A stretch of 24,161 nucleotides of DNA from Patescibacteria group bacterium (GCA_035561835.1 DATMXF010000229.1:1-24161), one strand, 5' to 3'. Shown: positions 6,084-19,399, numbered from the stretch's first letter. Translations and numbers: made by a program. Notes: a model not told the origin generated them from the sequence alone.

Positions 6084-6088
6084 GCGAG

Positions 6089-6145
6089 CAGCGAACAGCG
6101 CTCAGCCATCAGCTTTCAGCTTCCTTTGCTGACCGCTGTTCGCTG
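6089..6145 (+). terminator. Hairpin after priA (12-bp perfect stem, large loop)
   Basis: CAGCGAACAGCG (6089-6100) pairs with CGCTGTTCGCTG (6134-6145), with a 33-nt loop. No T-tract follows directly. Confidence 0.3.
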
Positions 6146-6170
6146 ACGGCGATCATTTGTCTTTTAACCG

Positions 6171-6995
6171 GTGATGTATTACAGTAGCGGCATAATGACG
6201 AGAATAATGAGTCAGAGGGAGACTGAGTCGCCGCTTCATATGGGCGAATCTCTGGATGACCTCGGTATCTCTGGTCTCAAGGTGATCCGGAATTTAACGG
6301 GTTTCCGTCATTCGGTGGATGCGCTATTGCTGGCGCAGTGGGCTGCGCCGCGATCGACCGACCGGGTCCTTGATCTCGGCTGCGGCAACGGCGTGATCGC
6401 CTTCCTGCTGGCTCATCGACATCCGGATCTTCGCATAGCCGGGCTTGAGATCCAGCCCGCCTTGGCCGATCGGGCCAGGCGGGGAGTGCAACTCAACGGG
6501 CTACAGGGCCGCATCGAGATTATGGAAGGCGACCTCCGTCAGGTGAAAGGGCTGCTACCGGCCGCAGGTTTTGATATGGTTCTCTGTAACCCGCCATATC
6601 GAGAGTTGGCCAGTGGGCGGCTCAGTCCGGATCCGGAGATCCGACAAGCCAAGCATGAGCTGACCGCCACCCTTGAAGAGGCGATTGCGGCCGTCCGATA
6701 CCTGCTCGCACCCAAAGGACGAACGTGCCTGATCTACCATGCCTCGCGGCTCGTCGATCTGCTGAGCAGCCTCAGGGCGACACGGCTGGAACCAAAGAGA
6801 TTGCGGTTGGTCCACTCTTACCCCGGCGCCGAGGCGGAACTGAGCTTAGTGGAGGCGCGGCGGGACGGGCGACCGGGACTGCAGATCCTTGCCCCTCTGT
6901 TCGTCTATCAGGCACGAGGCGGCCCTTTATCGCCTGGCATGGAAGCCATCTATCGCAGTCTGACCTTGTCTGACATTCGGAGTACAGTCGCATGA
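6171..6995 (+). CDS. Class I SAM-dependent N6-adenine-type methyltransferase (YfiC/TrmN6-like tRNA m6A37 methyltransferase family)
   Basis: The SAM motif is VLDLGCGNGVIAFLLA and the catalytic motif is VLCNPPY. The start is uncertain: GTG 6171, ATG 6174 and ATG 6195 are all possible. The stop overlaps the next start (ATGA at 6992-6995). Confidence 0.65.
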   Translation: MMYYSSGIMTRIMSQRETESPLHMGESLDDLGISGLKVIRNLTGFRHSVDALLLAQWAAPRSTDRVLDLGCGNGVIAFLLAHRHPDLRIAGLEIQPALADRARRGVQLNGLQGRIEIMEGDLRQVKGLLPAAGFDMVLCNPPYRELASGRLSPDPEIRQAKHELTATLEEAIAAVRYLLAPKGRTCLIYHASRLVDLLSSLRATRLEPKRLRLVHSYPGAEAELSLVEARRDGRPGLQILAPLFVYQARGGPLSPGMEAIYRSLTLSDIRSTVA

Positions 6996-7849
6996 GTCGA
7001 TACATCATCGCTCTTGCCCAGATGAACCCCGCCCTCGGCGATCTGGAACGCAATCTTGCCCTGCATGAAAAGACGGCCGAGGAGGCGATCGGCCGCGGCG
7101 CCGGCCTGCTGATCTGTCCTGAATTGAGTCTGACCGGATACTTTCTCAAAGACATCGTCTCATCCGTGGCCCTGCCCTTGACCAGCCCCATTCTCAGCAG
7201 ACTCAGGGATTTGAGCCGTCGTATCGATCTTGTGGTCGGACTGGTTGAAGAGTCGCCAGAACATCTGTTCTACAATGCCGCCCTCTATCTCTCCAGGGGC
7301 GAGATCCGACACGTCCACCGGAAGGTCTACTTGCCCACGTACGGGATCTTCGATGAGCAACGATATCTCGCGGAGGGCAGTCGAATCAGAACATTTCAAG
7401 CGGACATCGGTCGATCTGCGATGTTGATCTGCGAGGATATGTGGCATCCCTCGGCCGCGTGTATTGCCTCCCTCGATGGGATGGAGATCATCATCTCGCC
7501 CTCTGCCAGTCCGGGTCGCGGGGGTTTGGAGGAAGGTCGCACGTTCGCGAACGCCAGAGCCTGGGAAACGATTAATCGGGCCTATGCTCAGCTCTTTACC
7601 TGCTATGTCCTGTACGCGAATCGGGTCGGTTACGAGGATGGGGCCTGCTTCTGGGGCGGCTCAGAGGTGATCGCCCCATCCGGCGAACCGATGGCCAAGG
7701 CGGAGTATCTCAGCGAGCAGATCCTGATAGCCGAAATCGACTCGGCAGAGGTTCGGCGGGCCAGAATAGCGAATCCTCTGCTTCGAGATGAGCGATTGGA
7801 TGTCACGCTTCGAGAACTTGAACGGGTGAAACGAGAGGTGGCCAGGTGA
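6992..7849 (+). CDS. Carbon-nitrogen hydrolase (nitrilase superfamily), likely glutaminase partner of NadE
   Basis: The Glu-Lys-Cys triad contexts are visible: [27 protein letters not shown]. It is coupled on both sides (ATGA at 6992-6995, GTGA at 7846-7849). Confidence 0.8.
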
Positions 7850-8667
7850 GCGCTCCCTCCCTACACTGCGAATTCGTCCAAAAGATCCTGACCGGGTTTA
7901 TTGTCAATGAAGTCCGAAAGGCCGGCTTCAGCCGTATCGTGGTCGGACTTTCCGGCGGGGTCGATTCGGCCCTATCCGCGTATCTCGGGGCGAAGGCCCT
8001 TGGGGCCGAGAATGTCTGGGCCCTCATGATGCCGTACAAAACCAGCAGTCCGGAGAGTCGGGAGCACGCTGAGCTGGTCGTGAAGCAACTCCGTATCCAA
8101 TCGGATGTCATCGACATCACACCGATGGTGGATGCCTATTACGAACGGTTTCCCGAGTCGGATCACGTTCGCCGGGGCAACAAGATGGCCCGCGAGCGGA
8201 TGACGATCCTCTTCGATCATTCGGCCAAGCTGAAGGCCCTGGTTCTCGGGACCAGCAACAAAACGGAACTGCTGCTGGGGTACGGCACACTGTATGGCGA
8301 TATGGCCAGCGCCATTAATCCCCTTGGCGATCTGTACAAGACCCAGGTCCGGCAACTGGCTTGCTACATGGGTATCCCGGAGGCTATCGTCCGAAAGGCG
8401 CCCAGCGGGGATCTCTGGGTTGGACAGACCGACGAGGCGGAGCTTGGCTTTAGTTACGAGGAGGTAGATCGGGTTCTCAATCTGATGGTAGACCGTCGTT
8501 ACGAAATCCCTGAGATTGTTGCTGCCGGCTTCGACGAGCGGTTCGTCCGGGCGGTTCTCGCCAAGGTCCAGGCATCCCAGTACAAGCGCCGCCCGCCCCT
8601 TATCGCCAAGATCTCTGCCCGCACGATTGATCGCGACTTCCGCTACCCCCGCGACTGGGGTAAGTAA
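7846..8667 (+). CDS. nadE: NAD+ synthetase, single-domain (NadE)
   Basis: The PP-loop is GLSGGVDSA, followed by [18 protein letters not shown] and LGDLYKTQV. The GTG start overlaps the upstream stop. Confidence 0.9.
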
Positions 8668-8800
8668 CGCTGCTATCACTCCGGATGTGGCGGGCACGGG
8701 AATTCCTCATGAAGGGTGCCCATTCCTTCTGCCCAATATCAACGGAGGAAAAACGCAGGACCTGCCGAGGCGATCTCCCGGACAGCAAGCCCTATCTCTA

Positions 8801-9328
8801 CTACTTAAAAGCATAGTTTATGTAGACGTGGTACGCCATGAGCAGCAACAACGCCATAGATAATCCGACATGGGCGCTGATCCACACCGGTCTGTACCAG
8901 GGCTTGTGGATTTTCACGATTTGAAAATTGAACAAGCCGGTGAGGAAGGCCAGCAACAACGTCAGGCTGAGGATTTCGAGATAGCCGTATCCCAAGGTTT
9001 GGGAATGGCCAAAGAAAAATAACAGAAGCAGAGCGCCGAAAAGTTTGTGGCGACCCATCATGGTTGCGGTATTGCGCTGCTCCCCCTGAGCGCGCTTCAC
9101 GGAAAAACGCCATTGATAAAGAACAAACGCAAACAATCCGAAGCCTGTGGCGAGTTTATACGTGCTGTCGCCTTGCAGTCCGGTCAATAAGGTCCACTGC
9201 CACCCAATCGATTGCTGGACAATCAAAGCCACCAGCAGGAACAGACCCAGCCAAAAATACCCTTTGGCGGGTACACCGGACTTCAGGCCGTCCGGAAGCA
9301 ACGATTTAAGTCGGTTGAAGCCTTGCAT
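8801..9328 (-). CDS. Integral membrane protein, candidate di-heme b-type cytochrome (two H-x13-H helices)
   Basis: I trimmed the track ORF (8801-9571) to the ATG at 9328 because the 5' extension overlaps the upstream gene. About 5 hydrophobic helices. HKLFGALLLLFFFGH and HVGLSMALLLLMAYH each place two His residues 14 positions apart. Confidence 0.55.
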   Translation of the reverse strand: MQGFNRLKSLLPDGLKSGVPAKGYFWLGLFLLVALIVQQSIGWQWTLLTGLQGDSTYKLATGFGLFAFVLYQWRFSVKRAQGEQRNTATMMGRHKLFGALLLLFFFGHSQTLGYGYLEILSLTLLLAFLTGLFNFQIVKIHKPWYRPVWISAHVGLSMALLLLMAYHVYINYAFK

Positions 9329-9341
9329 AAAGACCAAGCTT

Positions 9342-10211
9342 TTAACGGGCAATGACAAGGGCACCTCCTTCTTTGTTCGCTGCTGATCCAGGTCTTGGCT
9401 TGCTCGCCAGTGAGCTGAGCACCGCCAAGGTGTGCGGGGCTGTGCGCTTGGCGATTTCCCCCATGAACACCTCGGAGCTCGGTAAGAAATACCCCTCAGC
9501 CGGCCAGTGTTCGCCAATGGCGGGGGGATTGGCAAATTTCTGCGCCTTTTCAAGATAAGACTCGTAGGCATCCTTGAAGCCTTGGCGTAAGGCGGCGAGC
9601 GTGCGGAGTAACTCGTCCATGGACACGCTGCCGCTTGGATACATCCACGTGGTCGCGCCCATCACATCATTGAGCTTCCAGTCGTGCTTGGGTGATTGTT
9701 CGTGCTTGTTATGGCATTGGATGCAGCCCTCGACGACCGCCACATCGCTGAACATGGCGACCTGCATTTGAATGTCGGGCATGAAGAAGAATTGCGGCTT
9801 GAGGGTTTGCTTGACTACCTGGAATTTTTCCAATTGCAACCCCTCGAAGCGGTTCGCCGAGTTGACGGGATAGTCAGAACCCAGGAACAGACTGAGCGGC
9901 GTCGGATTCTTTTCCAGACTTTTCGCCGTCTCGCGCAGGAACAACGCCGGCAATGGGCCGGCCTCCACGTCCGCCTCGCGCCAACGCTCGTCGAACTTCA
10001 AACCGGTCTGCTTGCCCGCACCGACCACTTCCTTGGTCCACATCGCTCGAACTACGTCGTTTTCCGCCTTGAGAATCTCAAACATCCGCTCCACCGGGAT
10101 AGCCGCATCGGCAGCCTTCTTCTCTTCCAATGGCGGCGGGGCACTGACAAGCAGGTAGATGCTTAAGGCGCCCAGCGCCAGGCCGGCGATCCAGAAGTTT
10201 TGCTTAGCCAT
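9342..10211 (-). CDS. Membrane-anchored monoheme c protein, DUF3365 (Tll0287-like) domain plus C-terminal extension
   Basis: Start taken at MAKQNFWIAGLALGAL (ATG 10211; ATG 10220 is also possible), overlapping the upstream stop. There is a single CIQCH. The pattern GPLPALFLRE...VNSANRFEGLQLEKF...CIQCH...WKLNDVMGATTWMYP resembles DUF3365 heme-c sensor-like domains. Confidence 0.6.
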   Translation of the reverse strand: MAKQNFWIAGLALGALSIYLLVSAPPPLEEKKAADAAIPVERMFEILKAENDVVRAMWTKEVVGAGKQTGLKFDERWREADVEAGPLPALFLRETAKSLEKNPTPLSLFLGSDYPVNSANRFEGLQLEKFQVVKQTLKPQFFFMPDIQMQVAMFSDVAVVEGCIQCHNKHEQSPKHDWKLNDVMGATTWMYPSGSVSMDELLRTLAALRQGFKDAYESYLEKAQKFANPPAIGEHWPAEGYFLPSSEVFMGEIAKRTAPHTLAVLSSLASKPRPGSAANKEGGALVIAR

Positions 10212-10899
10212 CTTGACCATCCTGTTTTGCTTTGTAGTGGAGAGTTGTGCCGTAAGGAGAGGGCCCGCCATCAAAATAGGCGCGGATTTTCTCTGTCGGC
10301 GTTCGCTTGCCGACCGATTTCTCGGTCTGCATAATGTGGTTGCCGTGGAAGTCGTGGCAGCCCAGGCAGGAGTCCCATTGCTTGTGGGCTATCAAGTCCG
10401 CATGGGGCACATCGATGGGATCGTTCTTTAACCGGGTGTCCTTGTGGCAGTTCACGCAATAGTCTGTCTTCGCCAACGTGACACGCCTCCCCCGGTGTTC
10501 GGCGTGGCAGGAGACGCACTGATGGGGGCCCAACGTTTCCCGAACCTGGCTGAAACGGGGTTCGAGGAAGCGGTAGACCGGGTGGCGGTCGTTGGGCCGC
10601 TCGTGACAGGCCATGCAGTCCGTATTACCCACAGGGAGCCGTCCGAAGGCGGCGGGCGCTTCGCGCCACCCAAAGGCATAGCGCAGGTTGGCCTGAATCT
10701 GCTGGCGGAAGCTGCCCGGTGCGTTTTTGTGGCAAGCCACGCAGGCAAGCTTGCCGTGGCCTGTATTCATAGGTCCTTTAGCATGAAACCATTCCCCGAC
10801 TGGAAGCACGGTAAACACCAGGATCGCAAGTCCCAAACAGAAGCCGATCGCATAGGCGCGGTTTTGCCATTTCCTTGACCCTTCAGCTTTCGCTCTCAT
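10204..10899 (-). CDS. Membrane-anchored pentaheme c-type cytochrome (NapC/NirT/NrfH-like topology)
   Basis: It has five CxxCH motifs (CVACH, CMACH, CVSCH, CVNCH, CLGCH) and an N-terminal TM helix (AYAIGFCLGLAILVFTVLPV). The first ATG is at 10899; the track start at 10908 is a TTG. Confidence 0.75.
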   Translation of the reverse strand: MRAKAEGSRKWQNRAYAIGFCLGLAILVFTVLPVGEWFHAKGPMNTGHGKLACVACHKNAPGSFRQQIQANLRYAFGWREAPAAFGRLPVGNTDCMACHERPNDRHPVYRFLEPRFSQVRETLGPHQCVSCHAEHRGRRVTLAKTDYCVNCHKDTRLKNDPIDVPHADLIAHKQWDSCLGCHDFHGNHIMQTEKSVGKRTPTEKIRAYFDGGPSPYGTTLHYKAKQDGQDG

Positions 10900-11018
10900 A
10901 GCCACCAACTCAAGCTACGTGCCAAAAACTCACGCTGATGCATTAGGCCTTATTGTGTCTGCTGTGTAGCTTACCGGTGGCGAAAATGAAGCGTCTGCTT
11001 ATCCTCTGAATGGAGAGA

Positions 11019-11064
11019 GGGTGGGGGTGTGATCTGAAGACAACCACTTGGTTCACCCCCACCC
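11019..11064. repeat. G/C-run inverted repeat in the intergenic region
   Basis: GGGTGGGGGTG (11019-11029) pairs with CACCCCCACCC (11054-11064), 11 bp perfect, with a 24-nt loop holding a nested AACCA..TGGTT. No T-tract on either strand. Confidence 0.3.
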
Positions 11065-11201
11065 CATCCTTCCCCCCTCAAGAGGGAAAGGGGCTCATCG
11101 TCACCTCGCCACATATCGCTGATCCATGCGTCGCCTGAAGGCGGGTGACCACGCCCACGATCTCCCCTCTCTGGGGGCCGCTATTCTGTGGCTTCTGAGA
11201 G

Positions 11202-11489
11202 CTACTCGATGACCTCCATAATCCGACTCTGCACATTTGAGGCTAACATCATCAGCTCGCTGCGAAGCGCCTTACGCTCATCGAGGGCTAAAATTTTATC
11301 GAAGTTGCTGAAATCGCCCACCTCAATCGTAATGACTCGCTCCAACTTATTCGCCAAATGGTCGCCAAAGACGTGAAACCTCGAGACCCCTTGGTTGGCG
11401 AGCCAAAAAGTTTTCATTTTGCCGATTAAGAAGGCATCCAATGCCTGCTCTTGCCCTGGCTGAACTTCACACATGATGTGATAGATCAT
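11202..11489 (-). CDS. Small (95 aa) hypothetical protein with a beta-alpha-beta-beta-alpha-beta (ferredoxin-like / ABM-like) sequence pattern
   Basis: Strong SD (AGGAGGAG) before the ATG. The alternating hydrophobic pattern IYHIMCEV / helix / SRFHVFGD / RVITIEVGD / helix / SRIMEVIE suggests this fold. I am not confident of a family. Confidence 0.5.
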   Translation of the reverse strand: MIYHIMCEVQPGQEQALDAFLIGKMKTFWLANQGVSRFHVFGDHLANKLERVITIEVGDFSNFDKILALDERKALRSELMMLASNVQSRIMEVIE

Positions 11490-11725
11490 CGTTGCTCCTC
11501 CTTTGACATCGAGTGTACGTTATGGTTGGCCTCTCCCCTCATCCCTGCACGCTTCGTTGATTACCCCCTTCCCGGGATCAGTGCGCCGAACTACCGCATA
11601 CTCATCGATTGCTTCGAGTACTCTTAGGGGACACGATAGCTGTCGTTATCGAGTGCGATCCTGGCACACACGCCTGCTGTGACGCTTCGCCATCATTCAG
11701 CGCGCCGCTCCCGTCGGTCCTGGCA

Positions 11726-12106
11726 TTATGGGGTCTTGGTAAAGCTTCTGATGTAGACCACCAGCTCCTTGATCTCGGAATCGGTCAGTTTTAGCCCAAA
11801 CGAAGGCATCGATGCTTTACCTTGCTTAATAGTTCGAAAGAGAACGTCATCAGACCGTGTTTGCATATAGGCCGGATCGGCCATGTTGGGCACCTTAAAC
11901 ATAAAAAACAACGCCATCGCCTGCGGTCCATTGCCTTTGCCGCTTGCGCCATGGCATCGAGCACACCCAGTGTCATCGTACCTCGACTGCCCGCTTACTG
12001 CGCTTTTCGTCTCCGCGCCGAACGCGGAAGAGGTCCACACAACGACCAATATCACCATCACGTATAACCACCGGTAACGGAGTCGAGGCAAGAAACAACT
12101 GCGCAT
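11726..12106 (-). CDS. Periplasmic monoheme class-I cytochrome c
   Basis: The ATG at 12106 lies 8 nt after GAGGAGGA, which I prefer over the GTG at 12163. The signal peptide is WLYVMVILVVVWTSSAFGA. There is a single CARCH and a distal Met context (GKASMPSFG). Confidence 0.75.
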   Translation of the reverse strand: MRSCFLPRLRYRWLYVMVILVVVWTSSAFGAETKSAVSGQSRYDDTGCARCHGASGKGNGPQAMALFFMFKVPNMADPAYMQTRSDDVLFRTIKQGKASMPSFGLKLTDSEIKELVVYIRSFTKTP

Positions 12107-12192: not shown

Positions 12193-12238
12193 CAAAACGA
12201 TACCTCCCAGCCAGCGCTACCACTGACTGGGAGGTATC
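12193..12238 (-). terminator. Rho-independent-type terminator after qNOR-like paralog 1
   Basis: On the minus strand, GATACCTCCCAG (12238-12227) pairs with CTGGGAGGTATC (12210-12199), 12 bp perfect with a 16-nt loop. GTTTTGT follows. Confidence 0.6.
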
Positions 12239-12274
12239 AGAACGAAGTGTGATGTGCCTACCTAGATCCTCAGA

Positions 12275-14701
12275 TTAGAAGGCCTCGTCGCCGGCAGCCC
12301 AAGTCTCCCGCTCCTTCGCCTTCTCCTTGTCGTAGATGGTCCATTCACCTTCCTCGACAACAGAGGCTTCGCGGACCATCCGCCCTGCTCTTGACAGAAT
12401 GAAATAGGCGAGAGGCAACACGCCGCCAAAGAGGAAGATCGCGCCGCCGATCGTGCGCATCCACGTCAAGGTGATCCACACGCTATCCGTGACGTGCGCC
12501 TGTGCTCGGGCAGCCCAAAGTCCTTGCTTGAAGACGGTCGAAACCTGGTACAGACCGACAGGGAACAGGTCCAACATCATCATCAGCACCAGGCCGACCT
12601 GCAACGACCAGAAGATCCCCTTGATCAGCTTCTCATTCCAGGCAGAGCGCTGGAACAGGTGCTGGCAGGCAAACAGCATACCGGCGATGGCGATGTTACC
12701 CTTGACGCCGAACATGGCGGCATGGGCATGGTTGCCGGTAAGATAGGTGCCGTGCTCATAGTAGTTGACGATGGGCAGGTTGATCAACGAGCCGAAGACG
12801 CCCGCGCCAAAGATGTTCCAGAAGTTGACGGCGAGGATGAACGTCCAGACGCCGTCCATCACGAAGCGCTGCTTGCCCTCGGCAATGTTTTCATGGGCCT
12901 TCGACCGCTCCGTCCGCATCTTCCAGGCGTCCAGGGTGATCAACAGCAGCGGCAGCACCTGCATGGTGGAGAAGACGCTACCCAGTGCGATGATTCCTGT
13001 CGGCTTGGCGATCCAGTAGAAGTTGTGGGAGATGCCGATCAGGGCGGTCACCAGGAACATCATGACGGCCAGGAAGATAACCCGCTCGGCCATCGCCCGG
13101 TTGACCAGACCCATCTGCACCAGCATGTACCCAACGATACAGGTGGTGAAGACCTCGAAGGTCACCTCAACCCACATATGAATGTTCATCCACCGCCAGT
13201 AGTCCGCGATGGCGAAGTTCTGCGACGGGGTCATGAACATCCCGAAGAACAGGAACAGCACCATGATCCCGCTGCCGTAGAACAGCCAAGCCGGCACCGA
13301 CCAGAGGTTCTGGCTGGTGATCCAGGGCTTTACGGCGCGGAAGATGATGTAGACCCACAGACAGAACGATGCCAGCATCAGGATGTGCCAGAAGCGGCCG
13401 AGCTCCAGGAACTCCCACCCTTGGCTGCCGAACCAGTAGGCCATGTCGTCGCTAAAGAACCCTGTGTGGCCGAGGTAAATGCCAAACAGCGCGCCGGCGC
13501 CTACGATAAGACACAGCGTAAAGAGCAGGTTGATCAGGAACCGCTGCCCGTTGGGCACCTTCGAAATGCGGGGCAGGAAGAAGAGGGTGTAGCCGACCCA
13601 CGCCATAAAGAACCAGTAAATCTGGACGATGGTATGCCAGCCCCGGGTGACGGTAAAGGGGATAGTAAACCCTAACACTGTTGTAGCGAGGGCGCTACCC
13701 GGTCCACCACCGACGAAATCTTCGGCGCTCAGGATACCTGCCAGGACCTGGACCAGGAACAGGATGACAGCGAAGGCAAAGAACTTATAGGTGGCACGCT
13801 GTGTCGGTCGCACGTAAGCGTCGCCCTTGTTTTCCAGGTCGACCGTGGTGAGCGACCAATCCCGCCCATTGAACGGCTCGCCGGGCAGGGCCTTCATTTC
13901 GCCGTACACGTACAGGACCAGCATGGTACCGCAGAACAGCACAAAGATCGAGATAAAGCTCCAGAGATAGGTCTCAAACGTCGGGGTATTCCCGACTATC
14001 GGGTCGGGCGGCCAGTTGTGAGTGTAGGTATAGTCGAAACCCGGCCGATTCGCCCCGGACACCCAGCCTCCCCAGAAGAAATAGCCTGCTAGGGCCTTGA
14101 GATCTGCTGTGTTGCTGATATGATTTTCGATCCTCCCTTTCATGAAGGCTTCTTCATAGGTGGCATCCGTAAACATCCGGGTGTAGTGCGTGATCAACTC
14201 CTGATACGCAAAGACCTGAGCCGGATTGATACGGATGATGTTGGCAGCCGCATCATACCCGTTCTCATGGATTTCGCGCCTGACCCTGACCGAGATCATA
14301 TCACGGTCGGCTTGAGTGACAGGACGCTCCTTCGCGATCTCATTTTCGTAGAACTTGCTCATCGATACATAGGTATGGTGTAGCGCTTCAGCGGTGAAAT
14401 CCGGTCCGCGCTCACCACCGTCGCCCCAGAAAGAGCCATACGTCATCAGGCCCTTCAAGTGAAAGATCTGTTTTCCACGCTGGATCTCCCATTCGGGGAT
14501 GACGGTTTCTCCAGTGGTTGACAACACATAATTGGTCAATGGCGGAGCTGAGGTATAAGTCCAGACGCCCAAGGCAACCAAACCAATAACGCTGATAACG
14601 GTAACGATCAGGGCATGAAGCCACCAATACTTCTTGATCAGCAATGCTTGCCCGAATGTCCTATTAGTTTTCCCCATACCGCCGCTTGCAGTAGATTTCA
14701 T
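12275..14701 (-). CDS. nod: qNOR-family heme-copper oxidase, paralog 1 (808 aa), with putative nitric oxide dismutase (Nod)-type substitutions
   Basis: GGAGGTAACAATG is the start context. The architecture is qNOR-like: one N-terminal TM helix, a heme-free periplasmic domain, then a NorB-like core. Retained motifs: RGWH, NIHMWVEV, NHAHAAMFG. Altered motifs: SHNFYW instead of an HH pair (AAC at 13022-13024), SVFSTMQVLPL with Q instead of E (CAG at 12959-12961), and AEDFVGGGPG where qNORs have AHYxxE. Confidence 0.9.
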   Translation of the reverse strand: MKSTASGGMGKTNRTFGQALLIKKYWWLHALIVTVISVIGLVALGVWTYTSAPPLTNYVLSTTGETVIPEWEIQRGKQIFHLKGLMTYGSFWGDGGERGPDFTAEALHHTYVSMSKFYENEIAKERPVTQADRDMISVRVRREIHENGYDAAANIIRINPAQVFAYQELITHYTRMFTDATYEEAFMKGRIENHISNTADLKALAGYFFWGGWVSGANRPGFDYTYTHNWPPDPIVGNTPTFETYLWSFISIFVLFCGTMLVLYVYGEMKALPGEPFNGRDWSLTTVDLENKGDAYVRPTQRATYKFFAFAVILFLVQVLAGILSAEDFVGGGPGSALATTVLGFTIPFTVTRGWHTIVQIYWFFMAWVGYTLFFLPRISKVPNGQRFLINLLFTLCLIVGAGALFGIYLGHTGFFSDDMAYWFGSQGWEFLELGRFWHILMLASFCLWVYIIFRAVKPWITSQNLWSVPAWLFYGSGIMVLFLFFGMFMTPSQNFAIADYWRWMNIHMWVEVTFEVFTTCIVGYMLVQMGLVNRAMAERVIFLAVMMFLVTALIGISHNFYWIAKPTGIIALGSVFSTMQVLPLLLITLDAWKMRTERSKAHENIAEGKQRFVMDGVWTFILAVNFWNIFGAGVFGSLINLPIVNYYEHGTYLTGNHAHAAMFGVKGNIAIAGMLFACQHLFQRSAWNEKLIKGIFWSLQVGLVLMMMLDLFPVGLYQVSTVFKQGLWAARAQAHVTDSVWITLTWMRTIGGAIFLFGGVLPLAYFILSRAGRMVREASVVEEGEWTIYDKEKAKERETWAAGDEAF

Positions 14702-14760
14702 TGTTACCTCCTATGGCCACACCCATGACTTGGGTCGCCACATGTTCCTTTCACTACTTA

Positions 14761-14925
14761 CTACTCCTTACAATCTTGCCATCTTGGTACCGTTATCGCC
14801 CAAGGCCTCGGGGGCGCACGCACTTCCTGGTCAGCAAAAGGCAGACCGCCGCTTTGCCACCGGAAGCCTGGCCGACCACACGGTAACCCTTTGCTCAGCT
14901 TATCGACCCACGTCATAAGTTTCAT
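14761..14925 (-). CDS. Candidate 54-codon upstream ORF / leader peptide of paralog 1 (low confidence)
   Basis: GGAGGA lies 9 nt upstream of the ATG at 14925, and the stop is TAG at 14761-14763. The peptide is MKLMTWVDKLSKGLPCGRPGFRWQSGGLPFADQEVRAPPRPWAITVPRWQDCKE. It is partly conserved, in frame, with a counterpart upstream of paralog 2. Confidence 0.25.
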   Translation of the reverse strand: MKLMTWVDKLSKGLPCGRPGFRWQSGGLPFADQEVRAPPRPWAITVPRWQDCKE

Positions 14926-14993
14926 GAGGCACGTTCCTCCTTGCTTTCAAGGTCATCAGCTTACAGTCAAAGCGTAGGCTCTCCAGCAGGGCC

Positions 14994-15036
14994 TGTAAAT
15001 CAGATGATCAACTTAATTTTCAATGCAAATGCATTA
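14994..15036 (-). promoter_or_regulatory. Conserved upstream element of paralog 1 (TTTACA -35-like hexamer plus ATGCA-AA-TGCAT dyad)
   Basis: The plus-strand sequence GTAAATCAGATGATCAACTTAATTTTCAATGCAAATGCATTAG is related to the two repeats upstream of paralog 2. It contains a 14-bp perfect palindrome, AATGCAAATGCATT (15022-15035). Confidence 0.35.
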
Positions 15037-15207
15037 GTCGTCCAGGAGGATTACCCGGCCGGTGAACATTTTTCACGCTTGCCGGCCTTAGAGACGGCTA
15101 CTCACTGCCAGAGACAGAACGCCCCGGGCGTCTGCCCGCGGGGCCGAAGTTCTTCTTCATCTTTTTGAGTAACCGATAAACTGCGCCAGAGCACCATCGT
15201 TCGTTAT

Positions 15208-15234
15208 TATTAGTAGAACCCTGTTCTACTAATA
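15208..15234. promoter_or_regulatory. Perfect 12-3-12 AT-rich palindrome (candidate operator or hairpin)
   Basis: TATTAGTAGAAC (15208-15219), CCT, GTTCTACTAATA (15223-15234). Confidence 0.4.
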
Positions 15235-15237
15235 TAC

Positions 15238-15266
15238 AATATAGCGCAAAGCTCCCCCTGAGGCAA
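15238..15266 (-). promoter_or_regulatory. Sigma70-like promoter candidate (TTGCCT-N17-TATATT, minus strand)
   Basis: The -35 is the complement of 15261-15266 and the -10 is the complement of 15238-15243. The predicted start falls at the edge of the 15208-15234 palindrome. Confidence 0.3.
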
Positions 15267-15408
15267 GCATGAATATGGAAGGACCTAGAAATGGGGTCGA
15301 TGGGGGGGACGCGTACACGTCAGAGATAGCAAAAGCAGTCGCGCTGATCGCGTCAGTCAGGTGGTTTGCGTGGGGGACGGCCAGCCTCAGAGGAACGGCT
15401 GGCCGCAC

Positions 15409-15458
15409 AAAAAACGACACCCCGCAGCATAACATCTCTGTTATGTCGCGGGGTGTCG
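15409..15458 (-). terminator. Strong Rho-independent terminator after qNOR-like paralog 2
   Basis: A 20-bp stem (15415-15434 pairs with 15439-15458; one mismatch, one G-U) with a 4-nt loop. Six T residues follow on the minus strand (A-run at 15409-15414). Confidence 0.85.
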
Positions 15459-15496
15459 AAGTGCGTGTTACTTAGGTACTGACCTAGATCGTTAGA

Positions 15497-17932
15497 CTAG
15501 AAGGCCTCATCAGAAGCGGCCCAAGCCTCTCGCTCCTTCGCCTTCTCTCTGTCGTAGATCGTCCACTCGCCCTCTTCAACAACGGCAGCTTCGCGGACCA
15601 TCCGTCCAGCCCTCGACAGAATGAACCAACACAGAGGCACAACACCACCGAAGAGGAAGATCGCGCCGCCGATTGACCGAAGCCAAGTCAGCGTGTGCCA
15701 TACCTCGTTGGTGACGAACGACTGCTGGCGGCCATACCAGAACCCATACTGGAAGATGTGGGCGAGCTGATACAGACCAACCGGGAACATATCCATGAGC
15801 ATCATCATCACGATGCCGGCCTGCAGGGACCAGAAGACAGTCTTGATCAGCTTCTCATTCCAGGCAGAGCGCTGGAACAGGTGCTGGCAGGCAAACAGCA
15901 TACCGGCGATGGCGATGTTACCCTTGACGCCGAACATGGCGCCATGGGCATGGTTGTTGGTGAGATAGGTGCCGTGCTCATAGTAGTTGACGATGGGCAG
16001 GTTGATCAACGAGCCCATGACGCCGGCACCGAAGATGTTCCAGAAGTTGACGGCGAGGATGAACGTCCAGACGCCGTCCATCACGAAGCGCTGCTTGCCC
16101 TCAGAAAGGTGCTCATGGGCCTTGGTCCGCTCCGTCCGCATCTTCCAGGCATCCAGGGTGATCAACAGCAGCGGCAGCACCTGCATGGTGGAGAAGACGC
16201 TACCCAGTGCGATGATTCCTGTCGGCTTGGCGATCCAGTAGAAGTTGTGGGAGATCCCGATCAGGGCGGTCACCAGGAACATCATGACGGCCAGGAAGAT
16301 AACCCGCTCGGCCATGGCCCGGTTGACCAGACCCATCTGCACCAGCATGTACCCAACGATACAGGTAGTGAAGACCTCGAAGGTGACCTCAACCCACATA
16401 TGGATGTTCATCCACCGCCAGTAGTCGGAGATGGCGAAGTTCTGTGACGGGGTCATGAACATCCCAAAGAACAGGAACAGCACCATGATCCCGCTGCCGT
16501 AGAACAGCCAAGCCGGTACCGACCAGAGGTTCTGGCTGGTGATCCAGGGCTTGACGGCGCGGAAGATGATGTAGACCCACAGACAGAACGAGGACAGCAT
16601 CAGGATGTGCCAGAAGCGGCCCAGCTCCAGGAACTCCCAGCCCTGGCTGCCGAACCAGTAGGCCATGTCGTCGGTCAGCATACCGGTGTGGCCGGCATAA
16701 ATCCCAAACAGCGCACCGGCGCCGACGAGCACGCACAGCGCAAAGAGCAGGTTGATCAGGAACCGCTGCCCGCTTGGTACCTTCGAAATTCGGGGCAGGA
16801 AGAAGAGGGTGTAGCCGACCCAGGCCATGAAGAACCAGTAGATCTGGACGATAGCATGATAGCTTCGGACGACGCTGAAGGGGATGACGAGTCCGAACGC
16901 GCCCAAGATCGTTTCACCAGGTCCACCGCCGACGAAATCCTCGGCGCCCAGGATACCGGCCAGTACCTGCACCAGGAACAGGATGACAGCGAAGGCAAAG
17001 AACTTATAGGTGGCGCGCTGGGTCGGTCGAACGTAGGCATCGCCCTTGTTTTCAAGGTCGACCGTGGTGAGCGACCAATCGCGCCCGTTGAACGGCTCGC
17101 CGGGCAGGGACTTCATTTCGCCGTAGACGTACAGGACCAGCATGGTGCCAGCGAACAGCACGAGGATCGAGAGGAAGCTCCAGATGTACGTCGCGTACGT
17201 CGGGAGGTTGCCGGCGTCAGGATCATACGGCCAGTTATGGGTATAGCTGTAGATCTCGCCCGGTCGATTCGCGCCGGCTACCCAGCCGCCCCAGAAGAAG
17301 TAACCCGCCAATCCCTTGATGTCCTCCGGGTTGCTGATGTAGCTCTTGATCCGACCCTTCTGGAATGCCTCTTCATAGGTGGGATCGGTGAACATCTTAG
17401 TGTAATGATCGACCAATTCATTATATGCAAAGATCTGGGCGTCGTTCAGGCGGATGACGCCTGCGGCTGCGTCATAACCGTTCTGATGAATCTCTCGCTT
17501 GACCTTTCCCGCGATCCCGTCCTTCTCGTCCTGGGTTGCGGGGCGGCCCTGCTCTTTCTCGATCTGCATCTCATAGTGCTTGCCCATGGAGACGAAGGTT
17601 CGATGCAGAGCTTCTGCGGTGAAATCCGGTCCGCGCTCTGCGCCGTCACCCCAGAAGGATCCGTAGAGCATCAGACCCTTCAGATGAAACACCTGCTTTC
17701 CACGATTCATGGAATACTCAGGAATAACGACTTCCCCGCTCTTCGCCGATACGAAATTAACCAGAGGGGGAGCGCCGGCGTAGGTCCAGACGCCAAGCGC
17801 AATCAATCCGATAACGCTGATTGCAGTGACGATCAAAGCATGAAGCCACCAATACTTCTTGATGAGTAGTACTTGTGCAAATGTCCTCTCGTTCTTGCCC
17901 TTTGCCGCAGTTCCGCTGGGATTCGGACTCAT
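15497..17932 (-). CDS. nod: qNOR-family heme-copper oxidase, paralog 2 (811 aa from ATG 17932), with putative nitric oxide dismutase (Nod)-type substitutions
   Basis: I moved the start from the track's 17971 to the ATG at 17932, which has the same GGAGGTAACAATG context as paralog 1. It has the same motif set: RSYH, NIHMWVEV, NHAHGAMFG, SHNFYW (AAC at 16244-16246), SVFSTMQVLPL (CAG at 16181-16183) and AEDFVGGGPG (16916-16948). Confidence 0.9.
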   Translation of the reverse strand: MSPNPSGTAAKGKNERTFAQVLLIKKYWWLHALIVTAISVIGLIALGVWTYAGAPPLVNFVSAKSGEVVIPEYSMNRGKQVFHLKGLMLYGSFWGDGAERGPDFTAEALHRTFVSMGKHYEMQIEKEQGRPATQDEKDGIAGKVKREIHQNGYDAAAGVIRLNDAQIFAYNELVDHYTKMFTDPTYEEAFQKGRIKSYISNPEDIKGLAGYFFWGGWVAGANRPGEIYSYTHNWPYDPDAGNLPTYATYIWSFLSILVLFAGTMLVLYVYGEMKSLPGEPFNGRDWSLTTVDLENKGDAYVRPTQRATYKFFAFAVILFLVQVLAGILGAEDFVGGGPGETILGAFGLVIPFSVVRSYHAIVQIYWFFMAWVGYTLFFLPRISKVPSGQRFLINLLFALCVLVGAGALFGIYAGHTGMLTDDMAYWFGSQGWEFLELGRFWHILMLSSFCLWVYIIFRAVKPWITSQNLWSVPAWLFYGSGIMVLFLFFGMFMTPSQNFAISDYWRWMNIHMWVEVTFEVFTTCIVGYMLVQMGLVNRAMAERVIFLAVMMFLVTALIGISHNFYWIAKPTGIIALGSVFSTMQVLPLLLITLDAWKMRTERTKAHEHLSEGKQRFVMDGVWTFILAVNFWNIFGAGVMGSLINLPIVNYYEHGTYLTNNHAHGAMFGVKGNIAIAGMLFACQHLFQRSAWNEKLIKTVFWSLQAGIVMMMLMDMFPVGLYQLAHIFQYGFWYGRQQSFVTNEVWHTLTWLRSIGGAIFLFGGVVPLCWFILSRAGRMVREAAVVEEGEWTIYDREKAKEREAWAASDEAF

Positions 17933-17954
17933 TGTTACCTCCCGTGGCTCGACC

Positions 17955-18134
17955 TCATTTGAGGTGACCACCTTGCATTGTTATTACCGTGCCGTCTTGA
18001 GTTGGGATGATCCCATCCACCGGGGGCGCACGCGCTTCGCGAACAGTCCGCAGAGCGCGGGTGAGACGGCAACCGCCTGTTCGAACAGGCGGTGCCCCGC
18101 TACACTGCTTATCGATTCTCATCATACGGTCCAT
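17955..18134 (-). CDS. Candidate 59-codon upstream ORF / leader peptide of paralog 2 (low confidence)
   Basis: GAGGAGG lies 8 nt upstream of the ATG at 18134, and the stop is TGA at 17955-17957. The peptide is MDRMMRIDKQCSGAPPVRTGGCRLTRALRTVREARAPPVDGIIPTQDGTVITMQGGHLK. It shares M1, M4, I/V7-D8-K9, G13, P15, R18, G20 and E-x-RAPP with the paralog 1 uORF. Confidence 0.25.
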   Translation of the reverse strand: MDRMMRIDKQCSGAPPVRTGGCRLTRALRTVREARAPPVDGIIPTQDGTVITMQGGHLK

Positions 18135-18180: not shown

Positions 18181-18290
18181 GTAAATCCTGCGAATGAATC
18201 AATCCGCGATGCATATGTACTATACTATTTACTATGCTCTGTGAGACTCGTAAATCCTGCGATTGACTCAATATGGTGATGCATATGCAC
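18181..18290. promoter_or_regulatory. Two ~40-nt direct repeats (69-nt period) upstream of paralog 2, carrying short dyads
   Basis: Repeat 1 is 18181-18220, GTAAATCCTGCGAATGAATCAATCCGCGATGCATATGTAC. Repeat 2 is 18250-18290, GTAAATCCTGCGATTGACTCAATATGGTGATGCATATGCAC. Dyads: ATTGACTCAAT (18262-18272) and TGCATATGCA (18280-18289). Confidence 0.45.
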
Positions 18291-18502: not shown

Positions 18503-19399
18503 TCACGCTGCCTTGTGGGGCTCCTTCGTAGCCCCTGGCGCCTGTCCTGCCTCCGCGTGAGCCGCAGGCTCACGCCGCGCAATCTCGTTCACGTAGGCGA
18601 CAGCCTCCAGTCGTGTGTGGACCTTGAGCTTACTGAAGATGTTCTGGATGTGGTTTCTCACTGTAGTTTTACTGATGAAAAGCTGCTCCGCGATAGCCGC
18701 CGTCGTTGCGCCGGTCCGCATCAGGGTAACAACCTGCAACTCCCGCCGAGTTAAGTCACCGACAGGAGATACGGTCTTCTCACTCGCCGTAAGCTGAGTC
18801 TGAGCCAGTTGTTGGCGAACGAGCACCTCAAGCTGGTGCGCCGAGGTGACATCACGGAAGAGATGAACAACTGTCGGGGGCTGGTTATCCTCACAGGGAA
18901 GAGCAACACAGCTCACGTCGATCCACAGCGGTTTACCCGTCCTCGTCCGAGTAGCCATCTCGAAATGCTGGATCAGATCGCCGCGGCTCAACGTCATTTT
19001 CAGTGGGCAAGGCCACTGGCAAAGCTGATTGCCATTACTATCACGGCCGTTGAAGAACTCACGGCATTGCTGTCCGACCACTTGTTGCGCAGAAGCTTCC
19101 AGGATAGTTTCAGCGGCCCGGTTGCAGAACAGAATCTCTCCAGTCGGCGCACTGACAAACACACCGTCGGCCGTCTCCGCGAAAAGCTTGAAGGCAGCTT
19201 CGCGTGGTTCCGTAGGCTGTACGCTTTCCGGCTCGCTTCGCGAATCCTTTTCCTCAACTGCAGGTGTAAGCCGATGCTCGTTTTCCTCGTCGTCTATAAG
19301 GTAGTCCACTGCCTCGCCTGTCCGGACACCGCCATCACGCCGCAGGCCTGCCCCTGGGATTCGCACCGAACGTTTCGGCCCGTTGCCTGAATGCGCCAT
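18503..19399 (-). CDS. PAS-domain / LuxR-type HTH transcriptional regulator
   Basis: The C-terminal LuxR/GerE HTH is LTRRELQVVTLMRTGATTAAIAEQLFISKTTVRNHIQNIFSKLKV. The central PAS-like segment is FKLFAETADGVFVSAPTGEILFCNRAAETIL...VVHLFRDVT. There is no receiver or kinase domain. Confidence 0.8.
   Translation of the reverse strand: MAHSGNGPKRSVRIPGAGLRRDGGVRTGEAVDYLIDDEENEHRLTPAVEEKDSRSEPESVQPTEPREAAFKLFAETADGVFVSAPTGEILFCNRAAETILEASAQQVVGQQCREFFNGRDSNGNQLCQWPCPLKMTLSRGDLIQHFEMATRTRTGKPLWIDVSCVALPCEDNQPPTVVHLFRDVTSAHQLEVLVRQQLAQTQLTASEKTVSPVGDLTRRELQVVTLMRTGATTAAIAEQLFISKTTVRNHIQNIFSKLKVHTRLEAVAYVNEIARREPAAHAEAGQAPGATKEPHKAA

Follow-up and report, generated by a model that had tools for sequence, protein, structure and literature searches.

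We describe here a 24,161-nucleotide stretch of DNA (GCA_035561835.1, DATMXF010000229.1:1-24161; hereafter the window, meaning the whole stretch) deposited as a Patescibacteria group bacterium, and two long genes that lie in tandem on its minus strand, nod1 and nod2. We are virtually certain that these are the tandem nod paralogues of a Candidatus Methylomirabilis bacterium (phylum NC10) close to M. oxyfera, that is, orthologues within the family of putative nitric oxide dismutases (Nod). The explanation that best fits the locus as a whole, to which we assign a probability of roughly 0.7, is that of a Nod pair that dismutates nitric oxide (NO), encoded by two independent expression units each with its own leader, and with a catalytic core kept alike by gene conversion. 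An earlier reading of this stretch, made from its sequence (the original prediction), had placed two reading frames at 12275-14701 and 15497-17932, where both indeed exist, and had proposed that they are Nod-type enzymes of the kind carried as two paralogues by NC10 bacteria, with a biochemistry as yet unproven. Protein identity, synteny, residue signature and phylogeny all support that proposal.

An exact-sequence look-up found the two proteins under the public entries HWQ70396.1 and HWQ70397.1, from a 24,281-bp contig labelled 'MAG TPA: Patescibacteria group bacterium' (MAG, metagenome-assembled genome). The 90% clusters of the two proteins contain Ca. M. limnetica, M. lanthanidiphila (there named 'putative nitric oxide dismutase') and M. 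oxyfera CBE69502.1, the last in the same cluster as nod2. At the amino acid level nod1 is 97.0% identical to M. oxyfera DAMO_2434 and nod2 is 98.3% identical to DAMO_2437. The window is also collinear with the M. oxyfera genome (FP565575.1) across the 18.6 kb in which they overlap, mostly at ~90-93% nucleotide identity and at 81% in the cytochrome c/ORF95 segment, and the gene order of the M. oxyfera locus (L081 in our set) is that of the window: PriA, methyltransferase, CN-hydrolase, NAD synthase, a 183-aa open reading frame, Tll0287-like, ORF95, cytochrome c, nod(2434), nod(2437), PAS-LuxR, porin, GYD and FtsH. After the FtsH end of the M. oxyfera locus comes pmoCAB; in syntenic loci it ends ~7.5 kb upstream of the pair. 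All the loci of the Methylomirabilis lineage that we retrieved and that span both genes have the tandem pair, namely those of M. oxyfera, M. limnetica, M. lanthanidiphila and three further MAGs. Because of this collinearity and of the 97.0% and 98.3% identities, the Patescibacteria label is almost certainly that of a mis-binned NC10 contig, and the ~9% nucleotide difference from M. oxyfera means that its source is a different strain or species.

DAMO_2434 and DAMO_2437 are the founding 'putative NO dismutases' (Ettwig 2010/2012; PMC3413370). Since the window genes are near-identical orthologues of these founding members, the pair is not new; it has already been published, and its recognition here is the rediscovery of a textbook case. 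The uninformative names that such proteins bear in public records ('cbb3-type cytochrome c oxidase subunit I') follow from the lack of an NCBIfam model, a search of which returned for the nod proteins only a lone and meaningless 20-bit match to a cbb3 family.

Each gene is predicted to encode a membrane enzyme derived from the quinol-dependent nitric oxide reductases (qNOR), with one N-terminal transmembrane helix, a haem-free cytochrome-c-like periplasmic domain and a core of 12-13 helices of the haem-copper oxidase (HCO) type. The two proteins are identical at 662 of 809 residues (82%). In both, Pfam assigns NorB_cytochrome_c-like (PF22085, residues ~59-232) and COX1 (PF00115, ~303-755) and neither contains CxxCH, which is the qNOR architecture without haem c that had been described for them. 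The nod2 frame formally reaches a GTG at 17971, and the conserved start is the ATG at 17932 with GGGAGG before it. Among proteins of solved structure the best relative is the qNOR of G. stearothermophilus (3AYF, E = 6e-128), with an alignment that is gap-free around the catalytic motifs. Residues were mapped on this alignment and on a multiple sequence alignment (MSA) of 96 sequences, and the mapping was repeated on a separate MSA with 20 canonical qNORs; G. stearothermophilus numbering is used throughout unless a window protein is named.

On this basis His560 has become Asn (N560 in nod1, N563 in nod2; codons AAC at 13022-13024 and 16244-16246) and Glu581 has become Gln (Q581 and Q584; codons CAG at 12959-12961 and 16181-16183). 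At the quinol site His328 is replaced by Glu (E327 and E331), Glu332 by Gly in both proteins and Asp746 by Gly (G753 and G756), and in place of the quinol segment the proteins read S/G-AEDFVGGGPG (13697-13729 and 16916-16948). The window proteins are accordingly not canonical qNORs, all three quinol residues being replaced and both the three-His plus Glu iron site and Glu581 being altered. The three substitutions of the original prediction thus fall at homologous positions without gaps in the structure-guided alignment, at the coordinates that it gave, and its further statement that the haem ligand contexts and H508/E512 are retained agrees with both the 3AYF alignment and the MSA. Kept in both proteins are His508, His559, Glu512 and Glu516, the haem b ligands His355 and His653 and the haem b3 ligand His651 (the retained ligands in nod1 numbering are H356, H658, H660, H508, H559 and E512, with equivalents in nod2). 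As judged from these residues, the predicted enzyme has an intact scaffold for a low-spin haem b, a high-spin haem b3 and a non-haem metal, together with a lost quinol site and a remodelled metal site, and the Glu581 to Gln change is, in the same terms, the predicted loss of a catalytic and proton-relay glutamate.

These changes are exactly those by which 'putative NODs' were defined, namely a qNOR fold without haem c in which the ligand His residues remain save for one, replaced by Asn, in which a catalytic-site Glu is replaced by Gln, and which has no proper quinol site, and the signature has been described for DAMO_2434, DAMO_2437, strain HdN1 and Muricauda (PMC3413370). We compared 89 Nod-type sequences (80 genome loci of many phyla, further fetched loci and two 50%-cluster representatives) with 20 canonical ones (eighteen qNOR cluster representatives and two solved qNORs). 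Asn560 and Gln581 occur in 89/89 Nod-type sequences, a count to be read with the bias towards Nod-type sequences of a locus retrieval pattern that contained HNFYWIAK, and His560 and Glu581 in 20/20 canonical qNORs. The canonical set has His328 and Asp746 in 19/20 each and Glu or Asp at position 332 in 18/20; Asp746 is replaced by Gly in 88/89 of the Nod-type set. A blind scan for columns that discriminate the two groups yields only H560N, E581Q, D746G, W505M and N234H. In a neighbour-joining tree (109 sequences, 781 columns, 100 bootstraps) the Nod-signature set, with both window proteins inside it, is split from the canonical qNORs in 100/100 replicates, and the Methylomirabilis clade is likewise recovered in 100/100.

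Two of the discriminating columns lie outside the signature that the original prediction had listed, and each separates all Nod-type sequences from canonical qNORs: Trp505 to Met (WRWMNIHMWVEV; nod1 residue 505, codon 13187-13189) and Asn234 to His (YTHNWP; nod1 residue 228, codon 14018-14020). A further observation concerns P0028, a representative of 781 aa and 44% identity that is intermediate in character, having Asn560, Gln581 and Gly at both 332 and 746 while keeping His at 328, and that could inform the order in which the qNOR-to-Nod substitutions arose. The AlphaFold2 (AF2) model of nod1 (predicted local distance difference test score, pLDDT, 82; predicted template-modelling score, pTM, 0.85) matches 3AYF with template-modelling (TM) scores of 0.84/0.90 and the NorB subunit of cytochrome c-dependent nitric oxide reductase (cNOR) with a TM to target of ~0.85. 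It is weakest at residues 551-600 (window ~12902-13051), the helix with His559/Asn560 and the loop after it, where pLDDT is 56-71 and falls below 50 at 561-563; because the confidence drops exactly there, the model gives no reliable picture of how the remodelled metal site is arranged.

With regard to the reaction, we consider NO dismutation (2 NO -> N2 + O2) somewhat favored. Two NO molecules would couple at the haem b3/non-haem-metal centre, as in nitric oxide reductases (NORs), and the resulting N2O2 intermediate would rearrange to N2 and O2 instead of undergoing reductive N-O cleavage, because no external electrons or protons would arrive. The O2 so made would feed particulate methane monooxygenase (pMMO) and terminal oxidases. 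The physiology reported for M. oxyfera bears on this choice: the organism makes very little N2O in spite of the high abundance of Nod, one of its most plentiful proteins, and a canonical qNOR (DAMO_1889) is present besides (PMC3413370), as are sNOR and gNOR (PMC3413370, PMC6094997), while Methylomirabilis genomes encode no N2O reductase (PMC6094997).

The main rival is an N2O-forming reductase with another electron donor, which we regard as unlikely. Nod would then still be an NO reductase (2 NO + 2e- + 2H+ -> N2O + H2O), and electrons would enter by a route other than the quinol site, for instance from a c-type cytochrome of the periplasm that docks on the cytochrome-c-like domain, or from menaquinol bound elsewhere. 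Several points speak for it and so weigh against dismutation. The electron-transfer haem b ligands are retained together with the haem b3 ligands, His508, His559, Glu512 and Glu516; an enzyme that takes in no external electrons would have no obvious need of the haem b ligands or of Glu512 and Glu516. Genes for c-type cytochromes, a monohaem protein with a signal peptide and a pentahaem protein, follow immediately downstream of nod1. Foraminifera that express Nod produce N2O, and nod abundance follows modelled N2O production in an oxygen-deficient zone (bioRxiv 2023.11.21.568154). A nod-like gene 77% identical to ours (locus L092) has a nosZ-like gene and a gene for a dihaem cytochrome c 2 kb away. 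Also weighing against dismutation is that no Nod has been biochemically characterized (PMC6094997; bioRxiv 2023.11.21.568154), and our literature search for a biochemical or structural characterization found nothing newer; nor did the PDB copy that we searched contain a solved Nod structure, the closest chains being canonical qNORs (~33% identical by BLASTP; ~31-33% over the nearest chains).

Against a retained reductase, however, stands the very low N2O output of M. oxyfera despite its abundant Nod and its own qNOR, sNOR and gNOR, in a lineage whose genomes have no N2O reductase. The cytochrome genes are, moreover, placed behind the nod1 terminator and are missing in M. limnetica and two further NC10 genomes that keep both nod genes. 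Finally, the exchange of His560 for Asn and of Glu581 for Gln in 89/89 Nod-type sequences, and in 0/20 qNORs, argues for a changed chemistry over a changed donor.

The gene cluster around the L092 gene is of interest in its own right. On this non-Methylomirabilis contig (JGI 3300037479) the interval 5001-11237 holds a Nod-signature gene with genes for a molybdopterin oxidoreductase, a dihaem cytochrome c and a nosZ-like protein (nos_propeller plus cupredoxin), an arrangement that fits some Nod-like enzymes feeding an N2O reductase.

Alternatively, Nod might have some other role, in which NO is not consumed catalytically as proposed, for instance as an NO-binding buffer or detoxifier, as an O2- or N2O-handling relative within the HCO superfamily, or as a structural or sensor protein. 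The superfamily has repeatedly changed substrate (PMC11214002), and the AF2 model is least confident at the very helix of the remodelled metal site; we nevertheless think such a role improbable, given that the binuclear-centre scaffold is preserved strictly and in full in many phyla, that very high expression has been reported in a nitrite-respiring methanotroph (PMC3413370), and that two highly expressed, gene-converted paralogues of 800 aa are not known to be needed for sensing or buffering alone. The idea that the genes are decaying, non-functional qNOR pseudogenes would account for the loss of ancestral catalytic and quinol-binding residues and is effectively refuted by the pattern of conservation. 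The reading frames are intact in all species; 94-98% amino acid identity to orthologues goes with only 86-96% nucleotide identity, which is the mark of purifying selection; and 62 diverse homologues have 200+ invariant columns in common. The strong Shine-Dalgarno (SD) sequences, the terminators and the dedicated regulatory leaders of the two genes, and the high expression reported (PMC3413370), are equally at odds with decay.

The NO-dismutating Nod pair that we favor has a history that can be followed in the sequences of the two paralogues. Because the tree recovers a '2437-type' group (78/100) and a '2434-type' group (82/100), the duplication must be older than the Methylomirabilis species sampled. 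In a codon-aligned comparison of paralogues and orthologues over five genomes, the N-terminal (codons 1-360) and C-terminal (721-817) parts group by orthologue type, with paralogues ~72-76% identical in four of the five genomes and 81-83% identical in M. limnetica. In the core (codons 421-720, especially 481-600) the paralogues of one genome are instead 95-99.7% identical, third positions included, are as close to each other as to their orthologues or closer, and group by genome in all five species. The M. oxyfera pair, for instance, is 99.7% identical in the core as against 97.5% to the window orthologue, and the pair of locus L087 is 98.1% identical as against 91.9-95.6%. Within the window the paralogues show 90-98% nucleotide identity in the core (third positions 83-95%) and 66-72% in the N- and C-terminal parts. 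This pattern, with core paralogues grouping by genome and their flanks by orthologue, indicates recurrent gene conversion, which homogenizes the segment with His508, Glu512, His559, Asn560 and Gln581. A repeat search did not delimit the conversion tract.

The two genes also have their expression signals in common, and a layout shared by both paralogues was read from a cross-species alignment of their upstream regions. Each nod gene would form an independent, strongly expressed unit composed of a palindromic box, a -35-like TTTACA, a 200-240-nt leader with an upstream open reading frame (uORF), a hairpin, an SD and a terminator. Two elements of this layout had been put forward in the original prediction and were found again: the identical SD/start context GGAGGTAACAATG precedes both starts, and both genes end in private, strong intrinsic hairpins (z about -8.5), each with a U-run. 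A motif CGGTAATAACAATGCA at 17973-17990 (minus strand) in the nod2 leader, located ~45 nt before the true start, resembles the start context GGAGGTAACAATGAG and is present in all '2437-type' leaders.

At a distance of 287-363 nt the nod starts are preceded by the palindromic box TGCAT(A/T)TGCAT, in one copy before nod1 and two before nod2; the window has 3 matches vs 0.28 expected, and in seven sequences (the window and six further Methylomirabilis loci) the box (TGCATNTGCAT) occurs only upstream of nod genes. Some 23 nt after it stands the TTTACA hexamer, followed 17 nt further on by a weak TAnnnT. This TTTACA-17 nt-TAnnnT arrangement might conceivably serve as the nod promoter; it is below the threshold of a sigma-70 consensus scan, in which neither nod gene showed an upstream promoter. 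The gene for a PAS-LuxR regulator with a helix-turn-helix domain directly upstream of the pair has the same position in L081, L083, L085, L087 and L091, and its product is a candidate binder of the boxes.

Directly before each SD the leaders of the 13 nod genes compared can form a hairpin, GTGGCC..CCTC-loop-GAGG..GGCCAC, in which 94% and 90% of cells are paired and whose inner stem shows compensatory changes (CCTC/GAGG, CCCA/TGGG, CCTA/TAGG). Its role may lie in mRNA stability, in processing or in translational control. Rfam gave 0 matches across the whole window, and the leader is therefore not a described RNA family.

The least expected part of the leader is its uORF. In the same 13 leaders, which come from 7 distinct Methylomirabilis-lineage genomes, an invariant ATG 8-9 nt after GGAGG opens a frame of 40-66 codons with Arg-Ala-Pro-Pro (RAPP) at residue 35-38. 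The RAPP codons vary at third positions only, and always synonymously (CGT/CGG/CGC/CGA, GCG/GCA/GCC/GCT, CCC/CCT and CCG/CCC/CCT), while the residues around the motif and the tail of 2-28 residues after it are not conserved. Between the window and M. oxyfera the 34 codons before RAPP show 6 non-synonymous vs 2 synonymous changes, and after RAPP a frameshift rewrites the whole tail of the peptide in DNA that stays conserved. For these two reasons we rejected the uORFs as genes for a conserved protein; what selection maintains is the start, the frame and RAPP, and the remainder of the peptide is free to drift.

Ribosome arrest at RAPP is well established (PMC10951233; PMC12992588), with a mechanism known from ApdA and ApdP (PMC10951233). 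The motif is under-represented in proteomes and over-represented in small ORFs that precede regulated genes, among them the copper-responsive CruR (PMC12992588). We put the chance that the nod uORF is a functional arrest leader at close to even. Slightly less probable still, and offered tentatively, is the proposal that a nascent-peptide sensor controls Nod synthesis: in a cytosolic leader peptide RAPP stalling, or its release, would respond to some signal, which might be NO, O2, haem or metal availability sensed through the conserved Cys- and Arg-rich N-terminal part, and would tune the translation or stability of nod mRNA through the conserved structure of the leader. If true, this would be a RAPP arrest peptide that has no export signal and stands upstream of a respiratory-type enzyme. 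The main text of the 2025 survey of RAPP uORFs mentions neither nitric-oxide enzymes nor Methylomirabilis (PMC12992588), and our literature search found no paper linking Methylomirabilis or nod to arrest peptides.

Several results count against an arrest leader. In partition-function folding of the 13 leaders the footprint of a stalled ribosome gave no consistent change in the accessibility of the nod SD. The uORF peptides, which are rich in Arg, Gly and Pro, have no signal or transmembrane segment and no hydrophobic stretch. In the M. limnetica lineage the uORF before the 'up' copy has decayed. Outside Methylomirabilis no RAPP uORF was found upstream of nod-like genes, all 14 positives among 93 upstream regions being of the Methylomirabilis type in a scan whose background is ~7% positive random windows; neither L092 (77% identical) nor L093 (75% identical) has one. 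Two particular mechanisms were also considered and set aside, namely a SecM-like switch in which the stall opens the SD, which the constrained folding did not support, and a long-range helix TGCCGTC/GACGGCA around RAPP, which is present in the 'up' leaders and not conserved in the 'dn' leaders.

Features of the nod locus in the 24,161-nt window (positions counted from its first nucleotide)
Feature	Position	Strand	Details
nod1, downstream paralogue	12275..14701	-	808 aa, ATG; orthologue of DAMO_2434; Pfam COX1 + NorB_cytochrome_c-like; N560, Q581, E327, G753
nod2, upstream paralogue	15497..17932	-	811 aa from ATG; orthologue of DAMO_2437; N563, Q584, E331, G756
Gene-conversion tract, nod1	12542..13441	-	codons ~421-720, catalytic core; nod2 partner ~15764-16663
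nod1 intrinsic terminator	12198..12239	-	19-bp stem then U-run; -36.0 kcal/mol, z = -8.6
nod2 intrinsic terminator	15409..15457	-	-33.2 kcal/mol, z = -8.4, then UUUUUU
Two-tier hairpin 5' of nod1 SD	14712..14742	-	from folding; directly before SD
Two-tier hairpin 5' of nod2 SD	17944..17971	-	directly before SD
nod1 leader uORF	14761..14925	-	54 aa; AGGAGG ~9 nt before ATG; RAPP at aa 36, codons 14809-14820
nod2 leader uORF	17955..18134	-	59 aa; GGAGG 8 nt before ATG; RAPP at aa 35, codons 18021-18032
Palindromic box TGCATTTGCAT	15023..15033	-	~330 nt upstream of nod1; aligned across species; candidate regulator site
Palindromic boxes upstream of nod2	18209..18289	-	TGCATATGCAT at 18279-18289; TACATATGCAT at 18209-18219
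PAS-LuxR (GerE helix-turn-helix) regulator gene	18503..19399	-	Pfam PAS_9 + GerE; directly upstream of nod pair
Variable cytochrome cassette	9342..12106	-	monohaem cytochrome c 11726-12106; ORF95 11202-11489; pentahaem cytochrome c 10204-10908; Tll0287-like 9342-10274; from Pfam

Five CxxCH motifs and one CARCH occur in the cytochrome cassette downstream of nod1. M. oxyfera, M. lanthanidiphila, L090 and L091 have the cassette, and M. limnetica, L087 and L089 lack it. The original prediction that the enzymes have no NorC partner holds in part: there is no obligatory subunit, and yet the gene for a monohaem cytochrome c with a signal peptide does stand directly downstream. We rejected the cassette as an obligatory NorC-like partner, since that cytochrome c gene is placed behind the nod1 terminator and the cassette is missing in three NC10 genomes. 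The pentahaem cytochrome c (5 CxxCH) is intact in M. oxyfera DNA, at 87.6% amino acid identity, and is absent from the gene list of that locus.

Nod is the candidate enzyme for NO dismutation, a light-independent biological route to O2, and underlies nitrite-dependent 'intra-aerobic' methane oxidation; its gene serves widely as a marker in soils and aquifers and in oxygen-deficient zones of the sea. Because Nod chemistry is still unproven, any Nod locus matters for that question. The window adds no new kind of evidence on the chemistry. What it does add is a taxonomic correction, in that a contig labelled Patescibacteria really belongs to Methylomirabilis; a systematic list of the residues that set Nod apart from qNOR (H560N, E581Q, D746G, W505M and N234H); and evidence that the catalytic cores of the paralogues are kept identical through gene conversion. 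To these we add a testable regulatory hypothesis, comprising the palindromic box, the RAPP arrest leader and the SD-proximal hairpin, which could help in the design of heterologous expression, the main bottleneck for a proof of activity. The RAPP leader, the nod-specific palindromes and the gene-converted core all appear to be undescribed in the literature that we searched, and of the elements of the locus the leader is the only potentially novel one.

Compared with known systems, the window is closest by far to M. oxyfera, whose NOD1 and NOD2 (DAMO_2434 and DAMO_2437) have the same tandem order, identical signature residues and the same flanks, with PAS-LuxR, porin and FtsH on one side and the cytochrome cassette, NAD synthase and PriA on the other; no functional difference between the two pairs is apparent. 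The canonical qNORs (NorZ; 3AYF, A. xylosoxidans 6QQ5/8BGW and N. meningitidis 6L3H) have the same fold as Nod (TM 0.84-0.90), the same domain order and, at ~31-33% identity by BLASTP, the same haem b/b3 ligands, His508, His559, Glu512 and Glu516. They differ in their quinol residues His328, Glu332 and Asp746, where Nod has Glu, Gly and Gly, in a third non-haem-metal ligand His560, where Nod has Asn, and in Glu581, Trp505 and Asn234, where Nod has Gln, Met and His. With the cNORs (NorB/NorC; P. aeruginosa 3O0R and R. denitrificans 4XYD) Nod has the core fold in common (TM to target 0.84-0.86, E = 1e-27 to 1e-29); cNOR has NorC, whereas Nod has no separate NorC, a fused cytochrome-c-like domain without CxxCH, and a substituted active-site His and Glu.

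The leader, in turn, is best compared with the RAPP arrest peptides ApdA, ApdP and CruR and with the SecM-like RAGP type. As in those systems a small ORF stands directly upstream of the gene that it might regulate, with an invariant Arg-Ala-Pro-Pro under selection at the amino acid level and an unconserved tail (PMC10951233, PMC12992588). Most known members have an N-terminal signal or transmembrane segment, a typical and not strictly defining trait that the nod uORFs do not have. The nod uORFs, of 40-66 aa with RAPP at residue 35-38, are predicted arrest peptides only and show no obvious SD-unmasking switch in folding. The gene that follows the nod uORFs encodes a respiratory-type haem enzyme and not a Sec, YidC or TonB protein.

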